A stretch of DNA of 64,000 nt, taken from assembly GCA_945873305.1 (NCBI GenBank), contig CAMCCX010000002.1, forward strand, positions 10,797 to 74,796, written 5' to 3'. The notes below the pieces were generated by a model. It was not told where the DNA came from and searched no databases. It worked only from the letters and a program-made list of their open reading frames with translations. Positions within the stretch are counted from its first letter, which is position 1; each line of letters starts with the position of its first letter. The DNA comes from Akkermansia muciniphila. Its GTDB lineage: Bacteria; Verrucomicrobiota; Verrucomicrobiia; Verrucomicrobiales; Akkermansiaceae. Below, in pieces: positions 9,286-36,767 of this stretch. The position numbers were made by a program, and so were the translations under genes.

Positions 9286-10923
9286 TTAGCGACCTGGCTT
9301 GGGGGCTTTGGGGATGGAATTACCCGACTTGTCCTTGCCGAAGATCAGCGAGTTAGGTTTTTCTTCGAGGGTGTTGGTCACCCCCTTGATGGATCTCAGG
9401 GCAGCGCGGAGTTCATCGAGAGTGCGGAGCAAATCGCCTTGGATCGCGCCGTCCGGGCCGACGCTGGAGACGGATTTTTCAAGCGCGCCCATCGTGCTTC
9501 TCAAGTCTGCGGGAAGGCTGGCGAATTCCTCGGAATCCAGCGTCTTGCGGGCGGCGGCGATGGTGGCGGTCGCCTCCTCGGCCAGCGTGTCGATTTTCTT
9601 CATGGTGTCCTCAAGCGGCAGGGCCTGAACCTTGTCGAGGATGGCGGTGAGCTTGGCTTCCAACTGGGCGAGACCCGAGGAAACCGTCGGAATGGACGGA
9701 TAATCGCCGGTTTTCGTTATCTCGGCAGGCAGTGGCTCCTTGTAGTAATCAAGGTCCACGAACAGTGCGCCGGTGAGCAGGCTGCCGGTTTTCAAAGCGG
9801 CGCGCAGGCCTCGGGCGACGGCGTCCTTGAGGAACTCGTCGTCAGGCTTGCTGATTTTCTCGGCCGCTTCCCGCCGCAACAGGGAAGGATCGATTTCTAC
9901 CAGCACGGGAATCCGCGAGTCGGCGGCGGACGTTAGGTAATCGAAGGAAATATCCGCGACGCGGCCGATGGGAATGCCACGAAATTCCACCGGGGCCGCC
10001 TTGACCAGCCCGCGGACCGATTGATCGAAGAGCAGGACGAACTTCATGGTGGGATTGAAGGTGGATTTGTTAGCCTCGTCCTCGTCGGAGAAAAGGGTGA
10101 AAGTCGCGCCATCGGTCGCAAGAGTCCCGGGAGCCACGCCTTCGGGCACGCCGAAGGTCGCGCCGCCGGAGACCATCGCCTGGAACGAAGGAGTCCGGAC
10201 TTTGAAACCGTCCGCCCCGGCGCTGATGTCGATGCCGCTGGTGTTCCAGAAACGGGTGTTAGTCTTCACGAGAGAGCTGTATTCCTGTCTGACGAAGGCA
10301 TCGTAGGTGACGCGTTGGCCTTCGGGATCGAGCTTACGGTTTTCAATCCGGCCGACTTCAAAGCCGCGATAATAAATCGGCGAGCCCGCCGTGAGCGAGC
10401 CCGCTTCCTCGGCGGTGAGGACGAGGCGACGCCCGGGGATGTCGCGATTGGTTGGCAGCGGCGTTTCCAAGCCTTTGAAGTGATTGATCTCGTCGCTGTC
10501 CGCGGGACCGGGATCGAGCTCGATGTAGGCGCCGGTGATCAGGGTTCCGAGGCCCGAGATATCCGTGGTGGAGACCCGCGGCCGCACGACCCAGAAATTC
10601 GACCCGCCGCGCAGCAAGCGGCCGGAATCCGGATTGAGCTCAAGCCGCACGACGACCGATTTCAAATCCTCCGCCAAAGTGACTTCTTTGACGAAACCGA
10701 CCCGGACCGAACGGCAGCGGACTTCCGTTTTCTCCGCGCCGATTCCGTCCGCCGTGTCGAAGCGCACATACGCGACCGGGCCCTGCGCGCTGACGCTGCG
10801 GTAAATCATCCAGCCGCCGATCACGAGGGCCAGAATGGGAACCACCCAGACGATATTCCAACGTTGCGCGGCCCGCAATTCCGGTGTGGCGGCGGGTGGT
10901 GATGTCGTTTCCGGTTCGCTCAA
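9286..10923 (-). CDS. pqiB: PqiB (MlaD/MCE-domain) intermembrane transport protein
   Basis: WVVPILALVIGGW anchor, three MCE-like repeats (FWVVRPRVS, GSPIYYRGFEVG, APVEFRGIPIG). Confidence 0.9.
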   Translation of the reverse strand: MSEPETTSPPAATPELRAAQRWNIVWVVPILALVIGGWMIYRSVSAQGPVAYVRFDTADGIGAEKTEVRCRSVRVGFVKEVTLAEDLKSVVVRLELNPDSGRLLRGGSNFWVVRPRVSTTDISGLGTLITGAYIELDPGPADSDEINHFKGLETPLPTNRDIPGRRLVLTAEEAGSLTAGSPIYYRGFEVGRIENRKLDPEGQRVTYDAFVRQEYSSLVKTNTRFWNTSGIDISAGADGFKVRTPSFQAMVSGGATFGVPEGVAPGTLATDGATFTLFSDEDEANKSTFNPTMKFVLLFDQSVRGLVKAAPVEFRGIPIGRVADISFDYLTSAADSRIPVLVEIDPSLLRREAAEKISKPDDEFLKDAVARGLRAALKTGSLLTGALFVDLDYYKEPLPAEITKTGDYPSIPTVSSGLAQLEAKLTAILDKVQALPLEDTMKKIDTLAEEATATIAAARKTLDSEEFASLPADLRSTMGALEKSVSSVGPDGAIQGDLLRTLDELRAALRSIKGVTNTLEEKPNSLIFGKDKSGNSIPKAPKPGR

Positions 10924-16070: not shown

Positions 16071-19000
16071 TCAGCCCAACAAGATCGTTAGTCGGTCGCC
16101 GGTACCCGTCAGTCGCCGCACAAGGTCGTCCATGCCGACACGGACAGCTCCGGGGCGGTAGGGATTCACTTCGCGACTAAACTCGAGAAGCGTGCCGTTG
16201 AGATCGATCGCAACCGGTCCGCGCCCGGTCTTTCCGGTGCGGTAAATCACTTCGAGCGAATGACCCGCTAGATCCAGACACGCCGTCAGCCCGTCCAGAT
16301 CCGGAGCGATGACCGGATCCACGACCAGCGCGGATTTCTCCAAACGCAACCCCAGGAAACACTGCATGATCAGCCGCACACCAATACCCGCGCCGCTGGA
16401 ATAGACGCGCCAACCGCCTTCCAGCGAAATCTCGCCCCGGCCCACCTTGTCGTAGTCGCTGAAGGCCTCGTAGCGGTCGGCGAAGGCGGCGTCGGAGCTC
16501 GAATAATAACAGTTGGCCTGGCGCGGCGTTGCGGAGGCGACCAGCTCACGGATCGCGATCGGGTTGAGCTGGCAGAGGGCGCGGAAGAAGCCCTCCGCAT
16601 CGCCGAAGTGGGCGAGCGCCTCGCAGTAGCGAAGATGGGCGTGCATGTACATGATACCGATTTCCCGCCCGAAGTAGCTGGCGCTTTCCGCCCGCTGGAA
16701 ATAAGTCTGCAAGCCGCCATGATAGGCCATCGGGCGGTCGAACAGGTGCGCGCCGTCAGGACCCAGCAGGTGCTCCCGGATGATGCCGAGGTGGGCCGCC
16801 GCCTGCGCCGGGCTGAACATGTCGTTGATGATGGCGTGGATCATCGGCAGCAGGCTGTATGACAAGCCGGTCGTGCCGTCGCGGGGATGGAGCAGGTGCT
16901 CGGTTTTTCCTCCTTCGTGGAAATAAGCAAGGCCGGCGAGGACGTCGTCCACGATGAGCACGCGCTGGAATTCTTCGAGGATCCTGGCGGCCATCGCCTC
17001 GAACTCCCCGGCGCGGCCAGCGTTTCCAAGATGCCGGAACGCGGCGGCCAGGGCGACGCATGTCTGATAGTTGAGCGTCACCGTCCAGGAACTGCAAAGA
17101 CGCTCGCGCATGTCCGGCTTGGCGGGCTGGAGCGAGTCGTTCCAATCACCGTGGCCGTAAGCGGCGAGGCTGGTGCCTTCGATCACCCGGCGCCGGATCA
17201 GATCCAGCGCGCGTTCGACATGCTGCCAGATGGTGGCTCTTTCCGCAGCGGCATCCCCATCCGGATGGAAATACGGCAGGGACTCATCGAGCACGGATGA
17301 ATCCCCAGTGGCTGATAGATACTGGGCGAGGGCAAGCAGCGGCCAATAGACGATGTCACCGTGCGAATCTCCCGGCCGGATGTTGCGCTCGCGCTCGAAG
17401 AACATGAACCATTGCGGCCAATCGCCATCGGCATTCTGCTGGCGGAAAACCCGGCATAACAGATCCCGGATCTGCTCGAAACGGCCGAGCGCGAGCAGCA
17501 GTTCGACCGGCCCCTGACAGACATCGCGGGTGCCCCAGCCGCCACCGGAGTATTGTTCGAGACCGCGCGGCGAAAGATAATGGACGAGCGCGTTGTGGAT
17601 GAACCACGGAAAGATTTCACCGGCGCGCTCCGCCGCCGGCCCCAACAGATTCTCCTGCGGCGCGGTGATCTTCAAGCCGGAGGCTATCGAATCCCAGAAG
17701 TGCCCGGGTTGCCCTGCAACCTCATCGACCAGCCGGCCGCGCATGACCAGTCCAGCGCCATTACTCGGCGCGGTGACGAAGCACAGGAACGGCTGGCTGC
17801 GCGAGACACCATCCGCGAAGAGCAATTCGTCGCCGCCGACGCTCTCGACACGCGTGCCCTCGGCAGGCCCGACAAGGAATCCGCCGTCCGGGAAACGGCG
17901 GCCCACGTCGCTGTCCGGCATCGCGCGAACGAACGCCGTGCTTCCATCCAGCTGATACCTGACAGGCACGGAGGAACTACCGTCATCGCCATTGAGGGCG
18001 ACGTGGTGGGAGACCAAAAACCTAACTGCCTCTCCTTTGAGAACCTTCAAACCTAAGCCGAGCTCATGCCTGTCAGCGGGAGCAGAGGAAACCACTTCGA
18101 TCAATCCACCCTTGTGTTTGTAAATCCAGCGACAGGAATCCGGACTCATTTCAAACGCCGACGGCACACCCAACAAAACCCAGCTCCCGTCGAATTCCAC
18201 AAACACCCGCTGCCCGTGACTGCGGAACAACCCGAGATAGCTGTGACAAGTTGATAGAAAGCGGTTGATGCTCACGTGGCCCTGCGTGACCATCGAGTGG
18301 AACACGCCGCTCATCCACGCGGTGGAGGTCAGGGCGGATTCGTCGGGGGTTAGCGATCCGCCCGAGCGCAGGAGATGGCCGTGAGGGCGGAGCACCTTGA
18401 GTTCCTTCCGCCGCAGCACCACATGGCTCTGGCGCCCGCTGAAAAACGACTCCAGTTGACCCTCCTCGCGTTCCGTGTGCCGTTGATCGCCACCAAATAA
18501 ATCCCGGATTTCAGCCTCATCCAGATCGAACGATTCCAACAACCCGGCGGCGGTAAAGAGGCTTTGAGCAGGGCGATCTCCGGCGATTTCCTCCAACCAC
18601 GGCGGGCAGACAGCTTCTGGCAGAGCCAATGCGGCGTCGATCCAACAGATGTCATCCGCAGAGGTGGCGGTCGGTTTATCCACTTCAAACCAACCGAAGA
18701 ACCCGCGTTGCGATTTCGCGCCCGGTTCGAGCACGACGGACTCGTCTTGGATGGCGACCAGAGAGTGCTCGTGCTGCAGTCGCGCCCCCGGAAGACCATC
18801 CGCTAGAGCGCCGGGTGTGCCGCCCGCACGGGTGGAGAGACCGTTGAACTGAAGCGCGTCCGTGGCATAGCCGACGGCGTTTCCGAGCGATCCGATGACA
18901 GTCCACGGGCAACTCCCCCCCATCGCCTGGTTCTGCCGCGATGCGACGGCCACGCCCTTCGCCGCATGGTCGAGCGGCGCGTGGTCCACGTATTGACTCA

Positions 19001-19445
19001 CATAAAACTCATTAAGCCGCACCGCACCATAGTGGGCGATGCCGATGTCCTGGGTGTGGATGAGATCGCAGGTGACTGGCTCATCGCCGGTATTTTCAAG
19101 TTCCACATGCCAGAACCACGCCTTGGCCGACTCTGCCAACACGAGGCGCAAGCGGAACGCCAGATCGCCCCACGCGCCGCAGGCGACCATGCCGCGGCCA
19201 AAAGTCTGATAGGACGCGGGACTGCCAGGACCTAGCAGGGGAATCGACTCCACCGTATTCCCAAGACGGCGCAGGTAGATGTTCGCCGGGCCGCCCTCCG
19301 CTTCGTTGCCGAGAAATACATTCAGCATGATGTCGCCGCAATCCGCCCGCCGGATGGAGCCGTTGGCATTCAGTTCGAAACTCATGCCAGAGGGACTGGC
19401 GGCGCGGAATGGAAAAACAACAGGCTGCGTTTCGTGGGGGCTCAT
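16071..19445 (-). CDS. GH94 glycoside phosphorylase, most like 1,2-beta-oligoglucan phosphorylase
   Basis: YSGGGWGTRDVCQGP, YGHGDWNDSLQP, REIGIMYMHAHLRY, GWRVYSSGAG; ~1124 aa fits the recalled SOGP subfamily size. Confidence 0.8.
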   Translation of the reverse strand: MSPHETQPVVFPFRAASPSGMSFELNANGSIRRADCGDIMLNVFLGNEAEGGPANIYLRRLGNTVESIPLLGPGSPASYQTFGRGMVACGAWGDLAFRLRLVLAESAKAWFWHVELENTGDEPVTCDLIHTQDIGIAHYGAVRLNEFYVSQYVDHAPLDHAAKGVAVASRQNQAMGGSCPWTVIGSLGNAVGYATDALQFNGLSTRAGGTPGALADGLPGARLQHEHSLVAIQDESVVLEPGAKSQRGFFGWFEVDKPTATSADDICWIDAALALPEAVCPPWLEEIAGDRPAQSLFTAAGLLESFDLDEAEIRDLFGGDQRHTEREEGQLESFFSGRQSHVVLRRKELKVLRPHGHLLRSGGSLTPDESALTSTAWMSGVFHSMVTQGHVSINRFLSTCHSYLGLFRSHGQRVFVEFDGSWVLLGVPSAFEMSPDSCRWIYKHKGGLIEVVSSAPADRHELGLGLKVLKGEAVRFLVSHHVALNGDDGSSSVPVRYQLDGSTAFVRAMPDSDVGRRFPDGGFLVGPAEGTRVESVGGDELLFADGVSRSQPFLCFVTAPSNGAGLVMRGRLVDEVAGQPGHFWDSIASGLKITAPQENLLGPAAERAGEIFPWFIHNALVHYLSPRGLEQYSGGGWGTRDVCQGPVELLLALGRFEQIRDLLCRVFRQQNADGDWPQWFMFFERERNIRPGDSHGDIVYWPLLALAQYLSATGDSSVLDESLPYFHPDGDAAAERATIWQHVERALDLIRRRVIEGTSLAAYGHGDWNDSLQPAKPDMRERLCSSWTVTLNYQTCVALAAAFRHLGNAGRAGEFEAMAARILEEFQRVLIVDDVLAGLAYFHEGGKTEHLLHPRDGTTGLSYSLLPMIHAIINDMFSPAQAAAHLGIIREHLLGPDGAHLFDRPMAYHGGLQTYFQRAESASYFGREIGIMYMHAHLRYCEALAHFGDAEGFFRALCQLNPIAIRELVASATPRQANCYYSSSDAAFADRYEAFSDYDKVGRGEISLEGGWRVYSSGAGIGVRLIMQCFLGLRLEKSALVVDPVIAPDLDGLTACLDLAGHSLEVIYRTGKTGRGPVAIDLNGTLLEFSREVNPYRPGAVRVGMDDLVRRLTGTGDRLTILLG

Positions 19446-19522
19446 GGCCGTATGGTGGGGTATTTCGGGGAGGCCTGTCCACCCCAAGCCGAGGTGATCG
19501 GGAGCGCTGCAAATCAGGCCTC

Positions 19523-20268: not shown

Positions 20269-20558
20269 AAGTTTGGTGGGTTAGGGTCCGCTTGATCCGA
20301 AATTGGCAGGACAAGCAAAACATTGCGACAGCATGGTCACTTACGGATGAGATCCCAGACAATCTCTCAATTGTGACGATTCTCCGCACGAGGAAGATCG
20401 ATCCGAAAAGCGGAATCTTTACAAAATGGCGAAAAATGAGCTGTGCCATGTTTCCGTGTGACAAGTCAGCCACACGTGTGATTTTTTTGTAACAGGATTT
20501 CCGTTGGGAGAAGCCAGCCGATTCATAGCTTGCCGATGCCTCTCAAACATCGGCAAAC

Positions 20559-27187: not shown

Positions 27188-27461
27188 AACCGCAGGGCAT
27201 CTACATTAGTAATGAATGAATGCGAGGAATTTGCTTTTGGGATGATGGCCCCTGAGAATGTTCATGTGGGGACCGAAGGACGGGGAAAAAGGGGGGTGCG
27301 GGGGAAAAGGGAACGGAAGAGGTGTTTCGGTGTGCCAGTGGGCGGCTTTTCAGTTAGAAAAATCCAAGTCCACGCCGGTAATCGGCTGATTCGGAGGATT
27401 TCACAGCGTTATTCCTTTGTCGCGAGCGTAGCTTTCCGTATCGCTTTACCAAATTTATTTA

Positions 27462-28916
27462 CTGCCGTCCCACAGGCTGGACGTGACGAGTCCTGAGCCT
27501 TGATTTTGCAAGGCGTCGAGAGGTTTTTGGCGGAGTGCCGATTGCGAGTTTTTTTACGGGAGGTTGATATATCCTTTGGATTACGCGACGATGCTGTCCC
27601 ATGAGATCATGTTCTGATAGGCGCAAATCCCGACAACCATGCGGTGTTGAGCGCTCCGATCACTTTGAATCGCCCGGATGCCGTCCCATAGGATTTCAAT
27701 AAAGCCAGTAGGTCGATCCGCTCCCACAACGCCGAGCGCGTGACGGCAAACAGCCGCGTGAAGCTATGCCCCCATGCCGAAAGGTGTGCCATGAACCGCA
27801 GCAGCACATACACCAGCAAGGCCGTGTAAACCTGCCATCTCACCGCGTTGGCGCTGTGACCGAGGAAGCTGCCGAGCTTGAGGCTCTGCTTGACCTGTTT
27901 GAAGAACACCTCGATGTCCCAGCGGCGGCGATACAGGTCGCACACGGAACGCGGGCTCCACTCCATGTTGTTCGTGATGAAGACCATCACCCGCCACTCC
28001 CCGTCCACTTCCACCCAGGCCTCAACACGCCGAAGCTTCATCCCCTTGTGCTTTCCTTGCAGCGCGATGACCTGATCCTTGATGATGTTCTCGTGGCCCT
28101 TGGTGTGATGTTTGACCACCCGGAATTTCATGTTGTCCTTGGCCCGGGTGACCCACCAGACGCCGTGCTGGTCAAGGTCGGAGAGGTGGTCGAAATCCAC
28201 GTAAGCCTTGTCGAACAGGACGATTTCGCCCGGCAGGATGGTCGCGCAGACCTCGCGGGCGCGCTTGTTGTCGTGCTGGCCGGCGGTGTCCACGATGGCG
28301 AAGGACGGCAGGAAACTGTGCAGGTCGAGCCGCAGATGCATCTTGGCCGCCGCCTTGCGCCTGCGGTGTTTGGCCCAGTCCATGCAATTGGCCACCAACT
28401 GGATGACCGTCGAGTCCACCGCGTGGATCCTGACCTTGAAGCGCCGCAGCAAGCCCTTGCCCTTGCGCCCCGCCACGAAATCCGGACTGGCGTGCTGGAG
28501 ATGGCCGAGCACCGACCAGAACAGTTTTTCGGCAAACTCCGCGTTGCGCTCCTTGTTGGCGTTGGAAAGACCGTTCCTGGATGGAGGCGTCACGCCGAAG
28601 CGCGCCAGGACTCCCGTTTTGAGTCGGAGCCAGTCACAGACATCGTTGAGTCCCATCGCGTGGGAAAGCTGGGCGAAGAGCATCGCCGAAAGATGGCTCA
28701 CCACGCTGAAGGTGCGGGCTTTGGCTTCCACGCCGGTCTCCAGGGCGTGGCGGTTGATCATTCCGCGAGGAATGAGGTTGAGCATTTGCTTGAGGACGAC
28801 CACATTGGCCCGGGCTGGTGTAGTTTTGTTCATAACACCCTACCGAGTGGCAGGAATTTCAACTCAACACCAGCCCGCTTTTCCGCTCCAAGCTAAGCCT
28901 TCCTGTGGGACGGCTG
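27462..28916 (-). mobile_element. IS4-family insertion sequence (~1455 bp)
   Basis: Terminal inverted repeats CTGCCGTCCCACAGG (27462-27476) and CCTGTGGGACGGCTG (28902-28916), 1 mismatch, flank a DDE transposase; no target-site duplication visible. Confidence 0.9.
27607..28833 (-). CDS. IS4-family DDE transposase
   Basis: AVDSTVI, LFDKAYVDF, WWVTRAK, YRRRWDIEVFFKQVKQ (YREK motif). Confidence 0.95.
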   Translation of the reverse strand: MNKTTPARANVVVLKQMLNLIPRGMINRHALETGVEAKARTFSVVSHLSAMLFAQLSHAMGLNDVCDWLRLKTGVLARFGVTPPSRNGLSNANKERNAEFAEKLFWSVLGHLQHASPDFVAGRKGKGLLRRFKVRIHAVDSTVIQLVANCMDWAKHRRRKAAAKMHLRLDLHSFLPSFAIVDTAGQHDNKRAREVCATILPGEIVLFDKAYVDFDHLSDLDQHGVWWVTRAKDNMKFRVVKHHTKGHENIIKDQVIALQGKHKGMKLRRVEAWVEVDGEWRVMVFITNNMEWSPRSVCDLYRRRWDIEVFFKQVKQSLKLGSFLGHSANAVRWQVYTALLVYVLLRFMAHLSAWGHSFTRLFAVTRSALWERIDLLALLKSYGTASGRFKVIGALNTAWLSGFAPIRT

Positions 28917-29031
28917 TGAATTGAAATCATGGTTCCGCAAATTGTGACGAAATTGCCCCAAAAACGGTTGCGCCCGTTGAAAGAAATCCCTGTTGGATTG
29001 AATTGCTTACAATCATTCCATCCAGACCATC

Positions 29032-30990
29032 ATGAAAATCGACATTGTGACGGATACCTTCGTTCCTGATGTGAACGGAGTGGCGATGACTTTGGGACGG
29101 CTGACGGACGGCCTGCGCCAACGGGGACACCGGGTGCATGTGATTCACACGGGAGTCTCGGCCAAAACGGGAGAAACCTGCGTCGCCGCCGTCCCGCTTC
29201 CCGGATACAAGGAAGTGCGCGTGGGCCTGCCGAAACCTTTCGAGCTCAAAGCCCGCTGGTTGAAGAGACGCCCGGACGCGATCTACGTCGCCACGGAAAG
29301 CCCGTTAGGAAAGTCCGCGCTCAAGGCAGCCAACGCGCTGGGCATCCCGGTGGCCTCCGGATTCCACACGAACTTCCACCAATACATGGCGCAATACGGC
29401 ATGGGCGGATTCCACCCGATGGCGATGGCCTATCTGAAAAATTTCCATCAGCGCGCGGACTGCACGCTGACGCCCTCGCGGGACATGGTGGAGCGACTCG
29501 GCAACGAGGGCTTCGAAAACGTCCATCTGCTAGGACGCGGCGTGGATACGGACTTGTTCGCCCCCGGGAAGCGTTGTGAATCCCTCCGCGCCCACTGGGG
29601 CGCACGGGCGGCCACACCGGTCGCGGTGATGGTCGGCCGGGTGGCGGTAGAGAAGAACTTCGAGTTGGCGATGAAGACCTTCGAGCAAATGCGCCAGGTC
29701 TTCCCGGACGTGAGGTGCGTGGTGGTCGGCGACGGTCCCTTGCGTGAAAAACTCGCCGTGAAATTCCCATGGGTTTGTTTTGCCGGTGTGCAAACCGGCG
29801 AGGAGCTCGCCAGGCACTATGCCTCGGCGGACGTGCTGGTCTTTCCCAGTGAAACAGAAACCTTCGGCAACGTGCTGTTGGAAGCGATGGCCAGCGGCCT
29901 CGCCACGGTGAGCTTCGACTACGCCGCCTCGGCGCTGCACGTGCGGGCGGGCGAAAACGGATTCAAGTCGGCCAAGGGCGACTCCGCCGGATTCATCCGC
30001 CACGCGGTGGACGCGCTTTCACTGCGGACGGACGACAAGCTGCGTGAAGCCGCCCGCGAAACCGCGGAATCCCTGGGATGGGACCAAGTGGTGGAGGAAT
30101 TCGCGCGCAGGCTCGCGGAGATCTCGGGAACCGCTGAAGATGTCCCCGCACCCCGGCCGAAGAAATCGAAGCGCCCCAAGTTTTCCTGTCGCACGGTCTT
30201 CATCTCGGACATCCACCTCGGCACACCTGATAGCAAAGCGGATGAAGTCGTGGAATTCCTCAAGCACATCAAGTGCCGCAAGCTGGTCCTCAACGGCGAC
30301 ATCATCGACGGCTGGGCGCTGAAACGCGGCGGGCGCTGGACATCGCGCCACAGCCGCGTGATCCGCAAGGTGATTAAGATGACCGAGCAAGACCACACCG
30401 AGGTGATCTACCTGCGCGGGAATCATGATGAGATCCTCGAGCGCTTCCTGCCGATGGCGTTCGGCAGGATCCGATTGACCAAGGAACACATTCACACCAC
30501 GGCGGCGGAAAAACGTTACCTCATCGTGCACGGTGACGGCTTCGACAGCGTCTCCACCAACCACAAGTGGCTCGCCTCGCTCGGGGCGGTGGGCTACGAT
30601 TTCCTGCTGCGCGTGAACCGCTTCTACAACCACTACCGGGCGTGGCGCGGCAAAGAGTATTTCTCCCTCAGTAAGCGAGTGAAGGCCAAGGTCAAGTCCG
30701 CCGTTAGTTTTGTAGACCGCTACGAGGAACTTCTCCAGGAGCTGGCCCGCCACCGGAAATGCGACGGCATCATCTGCGGTCACATCCACACGCCCGAAGA
30801 CAAACAGGTGGGCGCGATCCACTATCTCAACTCGGGCGACTGGGTGGAGAGCCTCACGGCCATCATCGAGCATCACGACGGACGGATGGAACTGGTGCGG
30901 CATGCCGGGTTCATCGAGAGCCTGAAGCGCGACGGACAGTCCGAACCGCGGGCGGAGCAGGCTTCCCTGCAATCCGCTTGCATGATCTAA
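29032..30990 (+). CDS. Fusion: GT4 glycosyltransferase (Agt-like glycolipid synthase) + LpxH/PlcP-like metallophosphoesterase
   Basis: N-half: IVTDTFVPDVNGV, PDAIYVATESPLG, FHTNF, FPSETETFGNVLLEAMASG. C-half: FISDIHLG, NGDIIDGW, GNHDE, VHGDGFD, ICGHIH, YLNSGDWVES. One continuous ORF. Confidence 0.85.
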   Translation: MKIDIVTDTFVPDVNGVAMTLGRLTDGLRQRGHRVHVIHTGVSAKTGETCVAAVPLPGYKEVRVGLPKPFELKARWLKRRPDAIYVATESPLGKSALKAANALGIPVASGFHTNFHQYMAQYGMGGFHPMAMAYLKNFHQRADCTLTPSRDMVERLGNEGFENVHLLGRGVDTDLFAPGKRCESLRAHWGARAATPVAVMVGRVAVEKNFELAMKTFEQMRQVFPDVRCVVVGDGPLREKLAVKFPWVCFAGVQTGEELARHYASADVLVFPSETETFGNVLLEAMASGLATVSFDYAASALHVRAGENGFKSAKGDSAGFIRHAVDALSLRTDDKLREAARETAESLGWDQVVEEFARRLAEISGTAEDVPAPRPKKSKRPKFSCRTVFISDIHLGTPDSKADEVVEFLKHIKCRKLVLNGDIIDGWALKRGGRWTSRHSRVIRKVIKMTEQDHTEVIYLRGNHDEILERFLPMAFGRIRLTKEHIHTTAAEKRYLIVHGDGFDSVSTNHKWLASLGAVGYDFLLRVNRFYNHYRAWRGKEYFSLSKRVKAKVKSAVSFVDRYEELLQELARHRKCDGIICGHIHTPEDKQVGAIHYLNSGDWVESLTAIIEHHDGRMELVRHAGFIESLKRDGQSEPRAEQASLQSACMI

Positions 30991-30997
30991 AATCTTT

Positions 30998-32710
30998 CTA
31001 TTTGAAAAGCACGTCCACCCCCATCGCGGACTTGCGGAGGAACTTGGGCATCGCCGCAGGATCACGCGGACGCAGGGCCCGAAAGACAAATCCGGCCAGA
31101 TAGAGGATGAAAAACCGGTCCACCCAGCGATAGCCGCGCTTGCGCCGCAGCAGAATTCCTGCCGCCATCGCAAGCGTGCGGCGTTTCACGGGAAATGGCT
31201 CGAAGGAAACCTTGATCCGGTAGCGCTGGCGTTTTTCCTTGGGCCAACGCAACTTGTAAGCGGCCTTCCCGGCGCGGATCCGCCCGGCGACGGATTCGTC
31301 AAACGGCAGGAAATAATAGCGGCGCGCCAGCAGGACGAGATGGAAGAAATCGCCCATGTGCTCGATGTCGTCCGCCGGAAGTCCGGCTTCGCGCGCCAGC
31401 GAGATCATCCGCGGGAACAAGGCCGCGGCCGCCTCGCCACCCGACAAGGCGGCTTCCGGATCACTAACAAAAAGCCACATGACCTTGCGCACGCCGTGAT
31501 TGATGAAAAGCGAGTCCCAGTAAACATGCAGCAATGGCGGTATCCGGACGCGCCGGAAAAACAGCTTCTGCCTGGCGAAGTCGCGGATATAGAGAAGCTC
31601 TCGAATCACGGTATCGGCGTGATCGAGAAGCTCCACCGCCGCGAACGCCCGCTCCGGTCCGAGCAGGGCTTCCACCGCTGAATCGGCGGATTTCCCGTGG
31701 CGGAAGACGGTGATGGCGGCCTCCGTGTTCAGCCGGATCCAGATGTCCCGGCCAGCGGATTCCAGATAGGCGCGCCGCCGGAAACGATGCCAGCCACCAG
31801 TCTGGCACCACACCGAAATTCCCACGACGTTTTCCACTTGTGAGAGTTCCCGCGCGAAGCGTTCGCAATCCCAGCCGATGAACGACGGATACTCGCCCGC
31901 GCCCTCATACTCCCGCCGGGCCTGCAGTTCCAACAGCTTGCGCTGCTTCACCCGGAAGAACGCGCGGTTGAGCGGGAGATAGCGGAAAAAATCGCTCTCA
32001 CCGTGTTTCATCGAAACGATTAGATTGGGCGAGTCGAGCCCCTCCAGCGTCCTTTCCAGCGTGCCCCGGTGCCAGATCAAATCGCCGATGCGGTGGGCCC
32101 CCACCGTCCACGTCCGGAAGATCAAATCCTTGCCGCGGCGTTCGAACTCGGGCAGCAGGGCCCGCAACAAGCGGTTTGCCTCGCCGGCATTGCGCAGGTG
32201 GATCCGCGTCCGGATCGGATCCTGCACGTCGTTGCCATCGCTCTCGCCGATGCGCAGGATCAATCCGGCAAGCTGGGGGAAATCACTAAGAATCCCCCGG
32301 ACCAGACCCACATAGTAAGCTTCCAACTCCGCCGGGTTCCCGCCCATGACCAGCGACAAGGCGGGCGTCATCGGCACCACATCGGTCGTTAGATAGACCT
32401 TCAGCCCGAACTCGCCGTGCAGCATGTCGAAGAATCCGGTGAATTTTCCGCGCAGGAAATCAATCCGATCCGCCACCTCCGGTTCGTGCAGCGGATGAGG
32501 AGCGAGGTGCGCCAGATCATCCAACGTAACCGCGTTGTATCCTTGCGCGGAGATCTGCCGCGCGAATTCCCGAAGCTCTTCCCCGATCGCCGCCCAGTCG
32601 TCCGGACTCGCATCGAGCAAGTCCATGAAAGAAATCTTGGACCAGTTGACCCGCATCCGGCCGCAGCCGCGAAAAAACGGGCCGATCGCATCGATGAGGA
32701 AAAGCTCCAT
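30998..32710 (-). CDS. Uncharacterised TIM-barrel-like protein, distantly GH67 alpha-glucuronidase-like
   Basis: Clean ~570-aa ORF convergent with the fusion gene; GH67 resemblance comes from my own motif alignment only. Confidence 0.6.
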   Translation of the reverse strand: MELFLIDAIGPFFRGCGRMRVNWSKISFMDLLDASPDDWAAIGEELREFARQISAQGYNAVTLDDLAHLAPHPLHEPEVADRIDFLRGKFTGFFDMLHGEFGLKVYLTTDVVPMTPALSLVMGGNPAELEAYYVGLVRGILSDFPQLAGLILRIGESDGNDVQDPIRTRIHLRNAGEANRLLRALLPEFERRGKDLIFRTWTVGAHRIGDLIWHRGTLERTLEGLDSPNLIVSMKHGESDFFRYLPLNRAFFRVKQRKLLELQARREYEGAGEYPSFIGWDCERFARELSQVENVVGISVWCQTGGWHRFRRRAYLESAGRDIWIRLNTEAAITVFRHGKSADSAVEALLGPERAFAAVELLDHADTVIRELLYIRDFARQKLFFRRVRIPPLLHVYWDSLFINHGVRKVMWLFVSDPEAALSGGEAAAALFPRMISLAREAGLPADDIEHMGDFFHLVLLARRYYFLPFDESVAGRIRAGKAAYKLRWPKEKRQRYRIKVSFEPFPVKRRTLAMAAGILLRRKRGYRWVDRFFILYLAGFVFRALRPRDPAAMPKFLRKSAMGVDVLFK

Positions 32711-32811
32711 TGCCAAGGACATGGACGATCACCTCGCCGGGCATGAGTGACGAGATATCAATATTGACGGAAACGTCACACCCCGCTGACGCCGTGCGCG
32801 ATAAATTCAAA

Positions 32812-33044
32812 TCACGCGACCGCTTCAATCTGTTTATCCACGTCCTCGCGGAGGTTCTCGATGATGAAATCCTGGCGGTCGGGCGTGTTCTTGCCCATGT
32901 AGAAGGCTAGCAATTCCTTCACTCCTTTGCCCTCTTCATACTCGACGTGGTCGAGGCGCATGTCCGGGCCGATCATGAAGCTGAACTCGTCGGGCGAGAT
33001 TTCTCCGAGGCCCTTGAAGCGGGTGATCTCGGCGGCCTTGCCGA
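32812..33044 (-). pseudogene. Orphan 3' fragment (copy B) of the parE-like gene
   Basis: [20 protein letters not shown]...[10 protein letters not shown]; 32837-33044 is collinear with 33963-34170, about 12 mismatches in ~208 bp by hand count. Confidence 0.95.
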
Positions 33045-33142
33045 AAAGCTTGAGCGCATCAAGGTCTCTCCTTAGGTTTAGGTTGGGTGCCTCATCCGCC
33101 TTTGCAATCGAAGCCCCGACACCCTAGAATCCTCACACCGCC

Positions 33143-33394
33143 ATGACCACCGCAGACCTCCACGCCCATATCTGGATCGATCCCGCCCGCTGCGGTGGCC
33201 GTCCCTGCATCCGCGGACATCGCATCTGGGTCTCCATGGTGCTCGATCTCCTCGCCGACGGCCTCACGCCGCAGGAAATCATCGCTTCCCATTACCCGCA
33301 GATCACCCTGGAAGACATTCACGCCGGCATCGCCTACGGTTCCGCGATGTCCCATGAGCGCTTTGTGTCCGTCGCCTTGGAGCCCGTCGCATGA
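33143..33394 (+). CDS. DUF433 family antitoxin
   Basis: IWIDPARCGGRPCIRGHRIWV..VLDLLADG.T..EI...YP.ITLEDI.A...Y pattern. Confidence 0.9.
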   Translation: MTTADLHAHIWIDPARCGGRPCIRGHRIWVSMVLDLLADGLTPQEIIASHYPQITLEDIHAGIAYGSAMSHERFVSVALEPVA

Positions 33395-33582
33395 AATTGA
33401 AGCTCGATGAAAACCTCGGCCTGCGGGGCCGGGACATGCTCGCAGAAGCCGGGCATGATGTTTGCACCGTGCCGGAGCAGAATCTTTGCTCCGCCACCGA
33501 TGAGCAAGTTGCTGTCCGCTGCCGTTCGGATGAGCGCGGCATCGTCAATTCCCGGGAAATCACCATAAGTTGCTTACAGTAA
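33391..33582 (+). pseudogene. DUF5615 PIN-like toxin, 3'-truncated
   Basis: MKLKLDENL...GHDVCTV...ATDEQV...RGIV, then diverges and stops at 63 aa. The expected T.D.DF segment and C-terminal half are absent. Confidence 0.75.
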
Positions 33583-33611
33583 GCCGAAATGAACGTCATC
33601 CAGCGGCGATC

Positions 33612-33875
33612 CGCACTCACTTTGGATCGAAGTCACACCTACTTTGGGCCTTGCTCGCACCCACTTCGGATCGAAGTCACATCTACTTTGGGCCTTGCTC
33701 ACACTCACTTCGGATCGAGGTCACACCTACTTTGGGCATTGCTCACACCCACTTTGGATCGAAGTTACACCTACTTTGGACCTTGCTCGCACTCACTTCG
33801 GATCGACCTCGCATCTACTTTGGGTCCGACCCGCACGCACTTTGGATACGACCCGCACCTACTTCGGATCGAACT
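33612..33875. repeat. Tandem array of 12 x 22-bp units (6 x 44-bp dimers), iteron-like
   Basis: Units start at 33612, 33656, 33700, 33744, 33788, 33832; dimer e.g. CGCACTCACTTTGGATCGAAGT-CACACCTACTTTGGGCCTTGCT. Confidence 0.95.
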
Positions 33876-33928
33876 CGCGAGGACTTTGATTGAAGGCGGA
33901 CGGGCTTGAGATCGAGCAGACCGCCACT

Positions 33929-35794
33929 TCAGGCGACCGCCACCTGCACTTGCACCTGCTTGTCCACGTCCTCGCGGAGGTTCTCGATGATGAAATCCTG
34001 ACGGTCCGGGGTGTTCTTGCCCATGTAGAAGGCGAGCAACTCCTTGACGCCCTTGCCTTCCTCATACTCGACGTGGTCGAGGCGCATGTCCGGGCCGATC
34101 ATGAAGCTGAACTCGTCGGGCGAGATTTCACCGAGGCCCTTGAAGCGCGTGATCTCGGCGGCCTTGCCGAGTTTCGCCAAGGCTTTCTGGCGCTCGTTGT
34201 CGTCGTAACAGTAGATGGTTTCCTTCTTGTTGCGGACGCGGAAGAGTGGGGTTTGCAGGATGTAGAGATGCCCGTCGCGGATCATTTCCGGGAAAAACTG
34301 GAGGAAGAAGGTGAGCAGTAGCAGCCGGATGTGCATGCCGTCCACGTCGGCATCGGTGGCGATGACGACTTTGTTATAGCGCAGGTATTCGATGCCGTCC
34401 TCGATGTTGAGCGCGGCCTGGAGCAGGGCGAACTCCTCGTTTTCATAAACGATCTTGCGCGGCAAGCTGTAGGTGTTGAGCGGCTTGCCACGGAGCGAGA
34501 AGACCGCCTGCGTCTCCACGTCGCGGCTCTTGGTGATGGAGCCGGAGGCGGAGTCGCCCTCGGTGATGAAGAGGGTGGATTCCTCACGGCGCTTGTGCTT
34601 GCTGTCGTAGCGGACGCGGCAGTCGCGGAGTTTTTTGTTATGGACCTTCGCCTGCTTGGATCGCTCTCTAGCGAGTTTTTGGATACCCTTGAGGTCCTTG
34701 CGCTCGCGCTCGGCGGAAAGGATGCGCTTCTGGATCGCCTCGGCGACCTGCGGGTGCTTGTGCAGGTAGTTGTCGAGGTTGGTCTTGAGGAAATTCCCGA
34801 TGAAGGTGCGCAGCGACTCGCCGCCCGGCTCGATGGTGGCGGAGCCGAGCTTGGTCTTGGTCTGCGACTCGAACACCGGCTCGATGATGCGCACGCAGAC
34901 GGCGGCCTCGATGCCGGCGCGGATGTCGGACGGCTCGTATTGTTTCTTGTAGAATCCGCGGATGACCTGGACCAACGCCTCGCGGAACGCGGCGAGGTGG
35001 GTGCCGCCCTGCGAGGTGTTCTGGCCGTTGACGAAAGTATAGTATTCCTCGCCGCTTTCGGGCGTGTGGGTGAAGGCGATCTCGATGTCCTTGCCGACGA
35101 GGTGGATCGGCGGATAGAGCGCCTCGTTTTCCATTTCCTCGCGCAGCAGATCCAGCAGGCCGTCCTTCGAGCGGAACTTCTTGCCGTTGAAATTGATGGT
35201 GAGCGCCGGGTTCAGATAGGAATAGTAGCGGCACATCTTCTCGACGAACTGCTCCTTGTATTTCGCCTTGGCGGGGAAAATCGTGCGGTCGAGATCGAAG
35301 GCGAGGCGGGTGCCGTTCGGCGCCTCGTCGCGCCGCGGGTTCGCCATGTCCACGGTGAGCTGGCCCTTGGAAAACTCCAGCGCCTTGGTCTGGTTGTCCC
35401 GCCAGGACTGGATTTCGAAAAAGTCGGAGAGCGCGTTGACCGCCTTGATACCGACGCCGTTGAGGCCGACGGATTTCTTGAACGCCTCGCTGTCATACTT
35501 CGCGCCGGTGTTGATCTGGGCGGCGCAGTCGAAAAGTTTCCCGAGCGGAATCCCCCGGCCGAAGTCGCGCACTTCCACCCGGCCTTGCTCGTCGATGTCC
35601 ACGCGCACTTCCTTGCCGTGGCCCATGATGTGCTCGTCGATGGAGTTATCCACCGCTTCCTTGAGCAGGATGTAGAGGCCGTCGTCGGGCGAGGAGCCGT
35701 CGCCGAGTTTCCCGATGTACATGCCGGGGCGCATGCGGATGTGTTCGCGCCAGTCGAGGGATTTGATGTCGTCTTCGGTGTAGTCAGCAGCCAT
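33929..35794 (-). CDS. parE: Type IIA topoisomerase B subunit (ParE/GyrB-like, short PVC/Bacteroidota type)
   Basis: [69 protein letters not shown]. Confidence 0.9.
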
Positions 35795-35927
35795 GAGGAA
35801 ATTCGTTTCGGAGTTCCTAAACGGTTGACGGGACGGGTGCAAGGGCGGCGATGCGGTGGAAATCAATCGCCTTGAAAATTCCCGTTGCCAGCGGCGGGGA
35901 CCTCCCCCAGCGTGCGCCCGAAACCTC

Positions 35928-36767
35928 ATGGATTGGACTTACAACATTCTCGGACCCGACCCCGCCGCCGGCCTCATGGTGGTGCTCATTCTCGTCATCA
36001 TCGAGGGCGTGCTGTCCGTGGACAATGCCGCCGTGCTGGCGACGATGGTGATGCGCCTGCCGGAACACCAGCGCGGCAAAGCGCTGAAATACGGCATCAT
36101 CGGCGCCTATGCGTTCCGCGGGCTCTGCCTCGCGCTTGCCGCGTGGCTCATCACCATCTGGTGGCTGGAACCGCTTGGCGGGCTTTACCTGCTGTGGCTC
36201 GCATGGAGCCATTTTTCGAGACACGAGTCCGTCATCGAGGAGGGCGTCGAGGCCGTGGAAACGGAAGGCAACTTCCTCTACCGTTGCACCATCGGATTGT
36301 TAGGGCCGTTCTGGGCCACCGTCGTCGCCGTGGAGGTCATGGACCTTGCGTTCTCCATCGACAACGTCGTCGCGGCGATCGCCTACGTGAAGAACTATCC
36401 GATGCCATCGAAGCTGGTGCTCGTCTGCACCGGTGTTTTCCTCGGCATCCTGGCGATGCGGTTCGCGGCCCAGGGCTTCGTGAAGCTCATGCAGCGCTAT
36501 CATTTCCTGGAAACCTGCGCCTTCATCGTCATCGCCGTGCTCGGCGTGAAACTCGTTCTCAGCGTGCCTCGTCATTTCCTGGCGAAAGGCCACGAATTCC
36601 ATGACTACCTCGCCTCCCAGTCTCAAGCGCTTTCAGCGGCGGGAAATGCCATCCACGATTTCCTCGCCAGCCATTACTTCGACATGGGGACCTCCGCCCT
36701 AACACTCTTGATCTTCATCGTCCCGGTCGTGCTACACCGGATTAAAAACGGGAGCTCGCCCGCCTGA
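35928..36767 (+). CDS. TerC-family (YkoY-like) membrane protein
   Basis: [32 protein letters not shown]. Confidence 0.9.

Follow-up and report, generated by a model that had tools for sequence, protein, structure and literature searches.

In the 64,000-nucleotide stretch of contig CAMCCX010000002.1 analyzed here (the window; assembly GCA_945873305.1, deposited as Akkermansia muciniphila), one gene of a lake-water Verrucomicrobium encodes a 652-residue protein in which an Agt2-like glycosyltransferase (GT) of family GT4 is joined to a PlcP-like metallophosphoesterase. This protein is likely a bifunctional, cytoplasmic and membrane-peripheral enzyme of phosphate-starvation lipid remodelling that acts through diacylglycerol (DAG). 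Pfam places Glyco_transf_4 at residues 14-174 (E 7e-29), Glycos_transf_1 at residues 186-344 (E 6e-24) and Metallophos at residues 387-588 (E 2e-13), and an identical Pfam set is carried by all of the 120 top-ranking homologues in the database (75-96% identity, 624-690 residues). The initial annotation of this DNA had proposed a fusion of an Agt-like and a PlcP-like domain with the motifs of both intact, and the motifs are indeed invariant: GFHTNF, GRVAVEKN, FPSETETFGNVLLEAMA and LGW in the GT part and SDIHLG, GDIIDGW, GNHDE, HGDGFD, GHIHTP and GDWVE in the metallophosphoesterase part are found unchanged across 40 relatives. The linker sequence quoted there, GTAEDVPAPRPKKSKRPK, lies at residues 366-383, but the linker as a whole spans ~20 residues (366-385) and not ~25.

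The single domains were compared with enzymes of Pseudomonas aeruginosa, for which PlcP, monoglucosyl-DAG (MGDG) synthase and glucuronosyl-DAG (GADG) synthase functions derive from mutants and from expression in Escherichia coli (Jones et al.; PMC8528852). As comparators we used annotated stretches of the P. aeruginosa chromosome that had been deposited as 'plasmids', in which the plcP-agt1 operon (PA3219/PA3218 orthologues) was recognised through its neighbour cyaB and agt2 (PA0842) through its neighbours plcH and plcR. In BLASTP, the N-terminal domain shares 44% identity over 393 residues with the GADG synthase Agt2 (E 4e-102), its closest characterised relative, and 30% with Agt1 (E 7e-39). 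A bootstrapped neighbour-joining (NJ) tree of GT domains has the Agt2 group as the nearest non-Verrucomicrobial relative, with a support of 76 for the joint clade, and Agt1/SAR11-type enzymes in a separate deep clade. The best Foldseek matches of the N-terminal half are the retaining GT4 enzymes BshA, MshA and PimA (E 3e-21).

The Agt/GTcp clade is characterised by the signatures GRVAxEKN and FPSxTDTFG and a His-Asp dyad, and the exchange D256E deprives GTcp of >90% of its activity (PMC8231724). The window GT keeps GRVAVEKN and His112 but reads FPSETETFG, with Glu276 replacing the Asp of the Agt clade. Since the validated Agt2 also bears Glu at this position (SETFG), the substitution raises no concern for GT activity and instead marks the domain as Agt2-type rather than canonical Agt. 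Membership of the N-terminal domain in the DAG-glycosylating GT4 group, as an Agt2-type enzyme, is thus supported by sequence comparison. The 'Agt-like' label of the initial annotation stands for this group as a whole, whereas an assignment to the canonical Agt/Agt1/SAR11 clade has to be given up in view of identity, tree and Glu276. With enzymes of the latter clade (Agrobacterium tumefaciens Atu2297, PA3218, SAR11 PB7211_960), the domain has in common GRVAxEKN, the catalytic His, a PlcP partner and the predicted type of reaction (UDP-sugar plus DAG); it differs in overall identity and in the signature Asp, and the clade members are encoded as separate open reading frames (ORFs) downstream of plcP. 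Agt2 falls into one GT4 subgroup with the window GT in the tree, but its own gene in P. aeruginosa is unlinked to plcP, whereas the window GT is fused to PlcP.

GT4 acceptor specificity is difficult to predict, and the GT might use an acceptor other than DAG, such as phosphatidylglycerol as in GpgS, another glycolipid or an envelope precursor, in which case the two domains would not form a consecutive two-step pathway. The Glu at the Agt-clade Asp, read against the loss of activity in GTcp D256E, could point in this direction, as could the best NCBIfam model for the domain, which is GpgS, the N-acetylglucosaminyl-phosphatidylglycerol synthase of the P. aeruginosa gpgSDF system and likewise a lipid-head-group GT4 enzyme. 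However, the score of 147 bits widely misses the cut-off of 480 bits set for the GpgS equivalog model (NF053787), and validated Agt2, which also has Glu, shows a matching pattern (135 bits). Hence, the score reflects subfamily relatedness and not membership, and the GpgS identity was dropped. Deacetylase and flippase partners of the gpgD/gpgF type were not seen near the fusion gene. The 44% identity to Agt2 along the whole domain, and the fact that GT and DAG-producing PlcP are physically fused or closely joined in an operon in dozens of species, argue for DAG as the acceptor, and we regard a different acceptor as unlikely. Residues implicated in DAG binding by GTcp (His104, Arg163 and Trp320; PMC8231724) presumably correspond to His112, Arg169 and Trp350, which are invariant and align pairwise with their counterparts in Agt1 and Agt2.

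Degenerate halves do occur among divergent fused homologues. P0123 and P0124/P0308, from metagenome-assembled genomes (MAGs) named 'Akkermansia sp.', no longer have the GT His or the GRVAxEKN/UDP-sugar motifs but have kept the PlcP motifs; conversely, P0322 has kept the GT motifs and lost the metal-binding GNHD, HGD and GHIH of PlcP. Such proteins lend some weight to the idea that only one half is catalytic while the other serves as scaffold, membrane anchor or regulatory module. For the window protein this is very unlikely, given that neither half shows any change in its catalytic and substrate-binding motifs in this protein or in 39 relatives and that each half is 44% identical to an active enzyme.

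The C-terminal domain is of PlcP type. The usual criterion in the field is a BLASTP E<1e-40 against MED193 PlcP (PMC4796936); against the validated reference used here, P. aeruginosa PlcP (PA3219 orthologue), the domain aligns with 44% identity over 254 residues (E 1e-75), compared with 25% over 120 residues for E. coli LpxH (E 2e-5). Across 25 proteobacterial PlcPs the identity is 36-52%, and it is 22% to E. coli LpxH. A fusion of an LpxH-type lipid A enzyme (UDP-2,3-diacylglucosamine diphosphatase) to an envelope glycosyltransferase is what the JGI/NCBI names ('LpxH/glycosyltransferase involved in cell wall biosynthesis') imply, and the C-terminal domain does match the LpxH models weakly. 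Yet its NCBIfam scores of 47 bits (NF003743, cut-off 134) and 30 bits (TIGR01854, cut-off 190) resemble those of genuine PlcP (55 and 45 bits) and lie far below those of E. coli LpxH (363 and 389 bits), which identifies the domain as PlcP-type and not LpxH. The names themselves do not discriminate: all stand-alone relatives of the domain are called generically 'UDP-2,3-diacylglucosamine diphosphatase/LpxH', and RefSeq attaches the same generic label to validated PlcP. With an identity of 22-25% to E. coli LpxH against 44-47% to PlcP, an LpxH-type function appears highly improbable, and the PlcP-like assignment of the initial annotation is borne out.

The domain shares the metallophosphoesterase family and the metal-binding motifs with the PlcPs of Pho-regulated remodelling (Sinorhizobium meliloti SMc00171, Phaeobacter MED193_17359, SAR11 PB7211_983 and PA3219), and also the genetic coupling to a DAG-glycosylating GT4 enzyme and, likely, Pho control. 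While known PlcPs are stand-alone proteins of ~270 residues, PlcP here forms the C-terminal half of a larger protein, and while the proteobacterial plcP gene lies upstream of the GT gene, the PlcP part here lies downstream of the GT part. With LpxH the domain has in common the superfamily, the database names and a helical insertion in the core (residues 512-574 in the AlphaFold model), located where LpxH bears its lipid-binding cap. A PDB sequence search with the domain returned nothing significant, and LpxH was absent from it at E≤1.

That the single ORF could be an assembly or sequencing artefact joining two adjacent genes, as sister lineages with two neighbouring genes (at four loci in one frame, with a single stop between) might suggest, is practically negligible, because the identical junction is covered with 0-1 differences and no indels by contigs of three independent lake-water metagenomes, >100 homologues share the architecture and 24 complete fused ORFs occur in species representatives, isolates included. 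The distribution of the fusion, proposed for a survey in the initial annotation, was followed at 80 loci of species-representative genomes, with each domain located by separate tblastn and ORF tracing. A fused single ORF was found at 24 complete loci (identity to the window protein ≥54%), labelled Luteolibacter, Haloferula, Rubritalea, Persicirhabdus and, in many cases, 'Akkermansiaceae/Verrucomicrobiales' MAGs. Isolates among them are Luteolibacter sp. AS25 (complete chromosome), Rubritalea marina DSM 17716 and R. spongiae, as well as the isolate genomes of Haloferula chungangensis and Persicirhabdus sediminis. Two adjacent genes in the order GT→PlcP were found at 17 loci (Prosthecobacter, Brevifollis and Verrucomicrobiaceae MAGs), and PlcP without a GT in its flanks at seven Verrucomicrobial loci. 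Proteobacteria have plcP→agt1-like pairs or a solo agt2-like gene. The statement in the initial annotation that the two enzymes are encoded by separate genes is therefore true of Proteobacteria, but in one clade of Verrucomicrobiales fusion is the rule. When the C-terminal domain was searched exhaustively, 741 proteins matched at E<1e-30; of the 150 that were listed, a few are fused clusters (560-660 residues), some longer architectures and fragments, and the rest are stand-alone proteins of ~240-320 residues with 37-52% identity, as expected for PlcP.

Some database labels in this set are likely wrong. They concern the MAGs L008, L019 and L014, named 'Akkermansia muciniphila' and 'Prosthecobacter debontii', a 564-residue fused homologue (P0121) from a eukaryotic transcriptome set (EukProt) and a fused homologue with its neighbour (P0024/P0341) attributed to a 'Gloeobacteraceae cyanobacterium'. 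Closest to the window gene is its counterpart in the lake MAG L008 (95% protein identity).

At the adjacent-gene loci, the PlcP ATG overlaps the GT stop or follows it by 0-30 codons, and the two genes are probably translationally coupled. At four of these loci a single stop separates both genes in a shared frame (L032:5403-5407 TAA, L033:4930-4934 TAA, L034:7122-7126 TGA and L038:7140-7144 TAG), which places them one mutation short of the fused state. The Lys/Arg-rich stretch preceding SD(I/V)HLG is the own N-terminus of PlcP in unfused relatives, and in BLASTP alignments the linker region matches the C-terminal tail of Agt2 and the N-terminal tail of PlcP. Thus, the linker consists of the GT C-tail followed by the PlcP N-tail, which became continuous when a stop was lost. 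The GT tree groups the fused proteins into one clade (support 57), which besides complete proteins includes only two contig-truncated copies; its sister is the group of adjacent-gene Verrucomicrobiales, followed by the Agt2 group. The fusion is specific to, and the norm in, one clade, and sequence comparison suggests that it came from an adjacent GT→PlcP pair; an agt2-like→plcP coupled pair would have lost its intervening stop in the Luteolibacter/Haloferula/Rubritalea lineage. The unfused pairs of Prosthecobacter, Brevifollis and other Verrucomicrobiales resemble the fusion in both proteins (46-52% and 54-65% identity), in gene order and in an upstream palindrome but make two polypeptides, and at several of these loci the operator is present twice and a divergent PhoB-like regulator lies next door.

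For the fused enzyme we infer a two-step reaction at the membrane. The PlcP domain, a Mn-type metallophosphoesterase, would remove the phosphorylated head group from phosphatidylglycerol, phosphatidylethanolamine and other phospholipids and leave DAG, onto which the Agt2-type retaining GT4 domain would move a sugar from a UDP-sugar, most likely glucuronic acid (GlcA) and possibly glucose, to give a phosphorus-free α-glycosyl-DAG. The flexible basic linker would tether both active sites so that DAG might be made and consumed at one membrane patch in 1:1 stoichiometry. Expression would probably fall under a Pho-type regulon marked by GTGAC-N6-GTCAC.

This palindrome emerged from a scan for Pho boxes. 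Of 44 Verrucomicrobial loci, 25 have a copy with ≤1 mismatch upstream of the GT start, compared with 0.017 sites per 250 nt in the background; at fused loci it is mostly perfect and located at -85 to -91, and several adjacent-gene loci have two copies. The known Pho box of PlcP genes is the direct repeat CTGTCAT-N4-CTGTCAT, while the putative operator of the window family is palindromic. Perfect copies lie, for example, at L001:9916, L012:5912, L025:2152/3088/4407/4451, L034:5874 and L049:5858/5924, and those beyond the GT-PlcP genes are intergenic. In L025 perfect palindromes precede genes for a protein of the PstS family (198 bits, cut-off 207), PstC (263 bits, cut-off 196) and a phosphate-selective porin O/P. 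In the window itself, palindromes with one mismatch at 20325-20340 and 20458-20473 precede the gene for a 1508-residue secreted-type phosphoesterase of choice-of-anchor-I/5'-nucleotidase type. A divergent ORF of ~230 residues lies beside the palindrome at the adjacent-gene loci L033, L034, L038, L049 and L055; the regulators of L034 and L049, the two tested, and that of L041, with the site upstream, are OmpR-family response regulators with PhoB as the best model. The palindrome shared by pstS, pstC and porin O/P promoters, together with the PhoB-like regulators, suggests Pho control. Hence, GTGAC-N6-GTCAC qualifies as a candidate operator for the Pho regulon of Verrucomicrobiales, and comparative evidence, short of proof, points to a place of the fusion gene family in the phosphate-starvation regulon.

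Several observations weigh against the proposed remodelling function, its origin or its regulation. An identity of 44% to Agt2 is insufficient to tell the sugar-donor specificity. The evidence for transcription, short contigs from freshwater and sediment metatranscriptomes that match both halves of the fusion gene and also the gene of its 574-residue neighbour, may include DNA carry-over. With regard to origin, the NJ tree of PlcP domains fails to separate fused from unfused Verrucomicrobial lineages (support 28), so that a single fusion event is argued from the GT tree, with a support of only 57%, and from taxonomy. With regard to regulation, the canonical Pho box CTGTCAT-N4-CTGTCAT is not enriched upstream of the 44 loci (20% vs 10% background at ≤4 mismatches), a palindromic dyad symmetry is unusual for the tandem-repeat site of PhoB, and the three PhoB-like regulators score 238-243 bits, under the PhoB equivalog cut-off of 296. 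Moreover, the window's own operator has two mismatches and an IS4 element lies 111 nt upstream of the fusion ATG, and regulation in this genome may therefore be altered. Finally, AlphaFold predicts folded domains (mean pLDDT 72, pTM 0.50; predicted local distance difference test and template modelling scores) with an internal stretch between them, the only one of its kind, where pLDDT falls below 50 (residues 369-379), but no fixed inter-domain interface or tunnel. True channelling of DAG, as suggested in the initial annotation, is not supported by this model; the benefit of the fusion is more plausibly co-localisation and fixed stoichiometry, and membrane tethering would be the more conservative reading.

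The IS4-family element spans 27457-28921, is flanked by 20-nt inverted repeats (27457-27476 and 28902-28921) and carries a transposase gene at 27607-28833 on the minus strand. DNA homology with the closest relative L008 begins exactly at 28921, which marks the element or the upstream context as genome-specific. In metagenome assemblies the IS4 region fragments into variant copies.

The gene convergent with the fusion encodes a conserved hypothetical protein of 574 residues (Table 1). The window protein has no Pfam or NCBIfam match of its own, and searches of PDB sequences with the single sequence and with a profile gave no significant match. One homologue, P0360, passes the Pfam model GH67M (25.5 bits, gathering threshold 23.5); others reach ~15 bits and the window protein stays below. 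The AlphaFold model (pLDDT 68, pTM 0.71) shows a (β/α)8 barrel with a helical domain, for which Foldseek ranks the GH67 α-glucuronidase 1h41 first (E 1.5e-9 but a template modelling score of only 0.45), followed by a GH138 α-galacturonidase. The protein has no signal peptide, and its C-terminal helices are hydrophobic or amphipathic. Homologues adjoin GT/PlcP genes in shuffled orientations at nine loci, namely L001 (11913-13610), L008, L009, L025 (7844-9529), L028 (4166-5884), L041 (8054-9781), L051 (4209-5918), L054 (3993-5696) and L058 (3867-5570), and are also found beside solo plcP; in at least 13 cases a homologue of the fusion and one of the neighbour lie on contigs of identical size.

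The neighbour is probably linked to the fusion and, from the palindrome that both share, apparently co-regulated with it. Such pairing of an α-uronidase-like protein with an enzyme resembling a GADG synthase is suggestive but falls short of proof. A further-reaching proposal would unite fusion, neighbour and operator in one phosphate-controlled module, in which the enzyme would channel DAG into GADG, the neighbour would be a membrane-associated cytoplasmic α-glucuronidase that removes GlcA, and the palindrome would be the Pho box of Verrucomicrobiales. We hold this to be rather unlikely; if true, the neighbour would be the first glycolipid uronidase, remodelling would be reversible or tunable and the palindrome would represent a previously undefined Pho box of this order.

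Both the pathway and the two enzyme families were already known, and a 2016 tabulation lists PlcP in Verrucomicrobia, with Rubritalea marina entered as 'plcP with Agt nearby' and the fusion not remarked (Sebastián et al., 2016). In the literature searched, we found no description of a PlcP-Agt fusion, of the reversed gene order, or of GADG or glycolipid remodelling in Verrucomicrobia. The fusion independently ties Agt2-type GTs to PlcP, a connection that needed experiments in P. aeruginosa with its unlinked genes. It also extends PlcP remodelling, hitherto studied almost only in Proteobacteria, to the abundant freshwater and marine Verrucomicrobiales, and makes it testable in the cultured strains named above. 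The fused gene is a natural one-gene cassette that should turn phospholipid into glycolipid and might be useful for tests of tethering and DAG flux and for low-phosphorus membranes. Annotations as 'LpxH/glycosyltransferase' or 'glycosyltransferase', of which >100 database clusters are listed, can be corrected. Furthermore, the palindrome can be tested as a candidate Pho operator of Verrucomicrobia, and the GH67-like neighbour, apparently under shared control, may point to an as yet unknown step of glycolipid metabolism.

Table 1. Positions of the fused gene, its predicted domains, its neighbour and the putative operator copies in the window.
Feature	Position	Strand	Remarks
Fused gene, Agt2-like GT4 + PlcP-like metallophosphoesterase	29032..30990	+	ATG-to-stop ORF, 652 aa
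N-terminal domain, retaining GT4 (GT-B), Agt2-type	29032..30126	+	aa 1-365; predicted UDP-sugar:diacylglycerol glycosyltransferase
Linker	30127..30186	+	aa 366-385; Pro/Lys/Arg-rich, predicted disordered
C-terminal domain, PlcP-type metallophosphoesterase	30187..30933	+	aa 386-634; predicted phospholipase C
Conserved hypothetical protein, distant GH67-like TIM barrel + helical C-domain	30998..32722	-	574 aa; convergent with the fusion
Degenerate copy of the putative operator, GTGACGAAATTGCCCC	28944..28959	.	2 mismatches; 88 nt upstream of the fusion ATG
Palindrome copy, TTGACGGAAACGTCAC	32764..32779	.	1 mismatch; 42 nt upstream of the start of the 574-aa neighbour

Beyond these features, a segment of ~0.9 kb at 33044-33956 has no counterpart in the otherwise collinear L008. 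It holds a small ORF (33143-33394) and overlapping ORFs (33570-33909), the translations of which repeat a motif like 'THFGSKSHLLWALL', suggesting tandem repeats. The wider window looks like ordinary chromosome, with genes for a SOGP-type β-1,2-glucan phosphorylase-like protein, a multi-MlaD (PqiB-like) protein, a GyrB/ParE-type topoisomerase subunit, acetyl-CoA synthetase, catalase-peroxidase and DsbD; coordinates given for this context are 16071-19487, 9286-10923 and 33929-35929, all on the minus strand.

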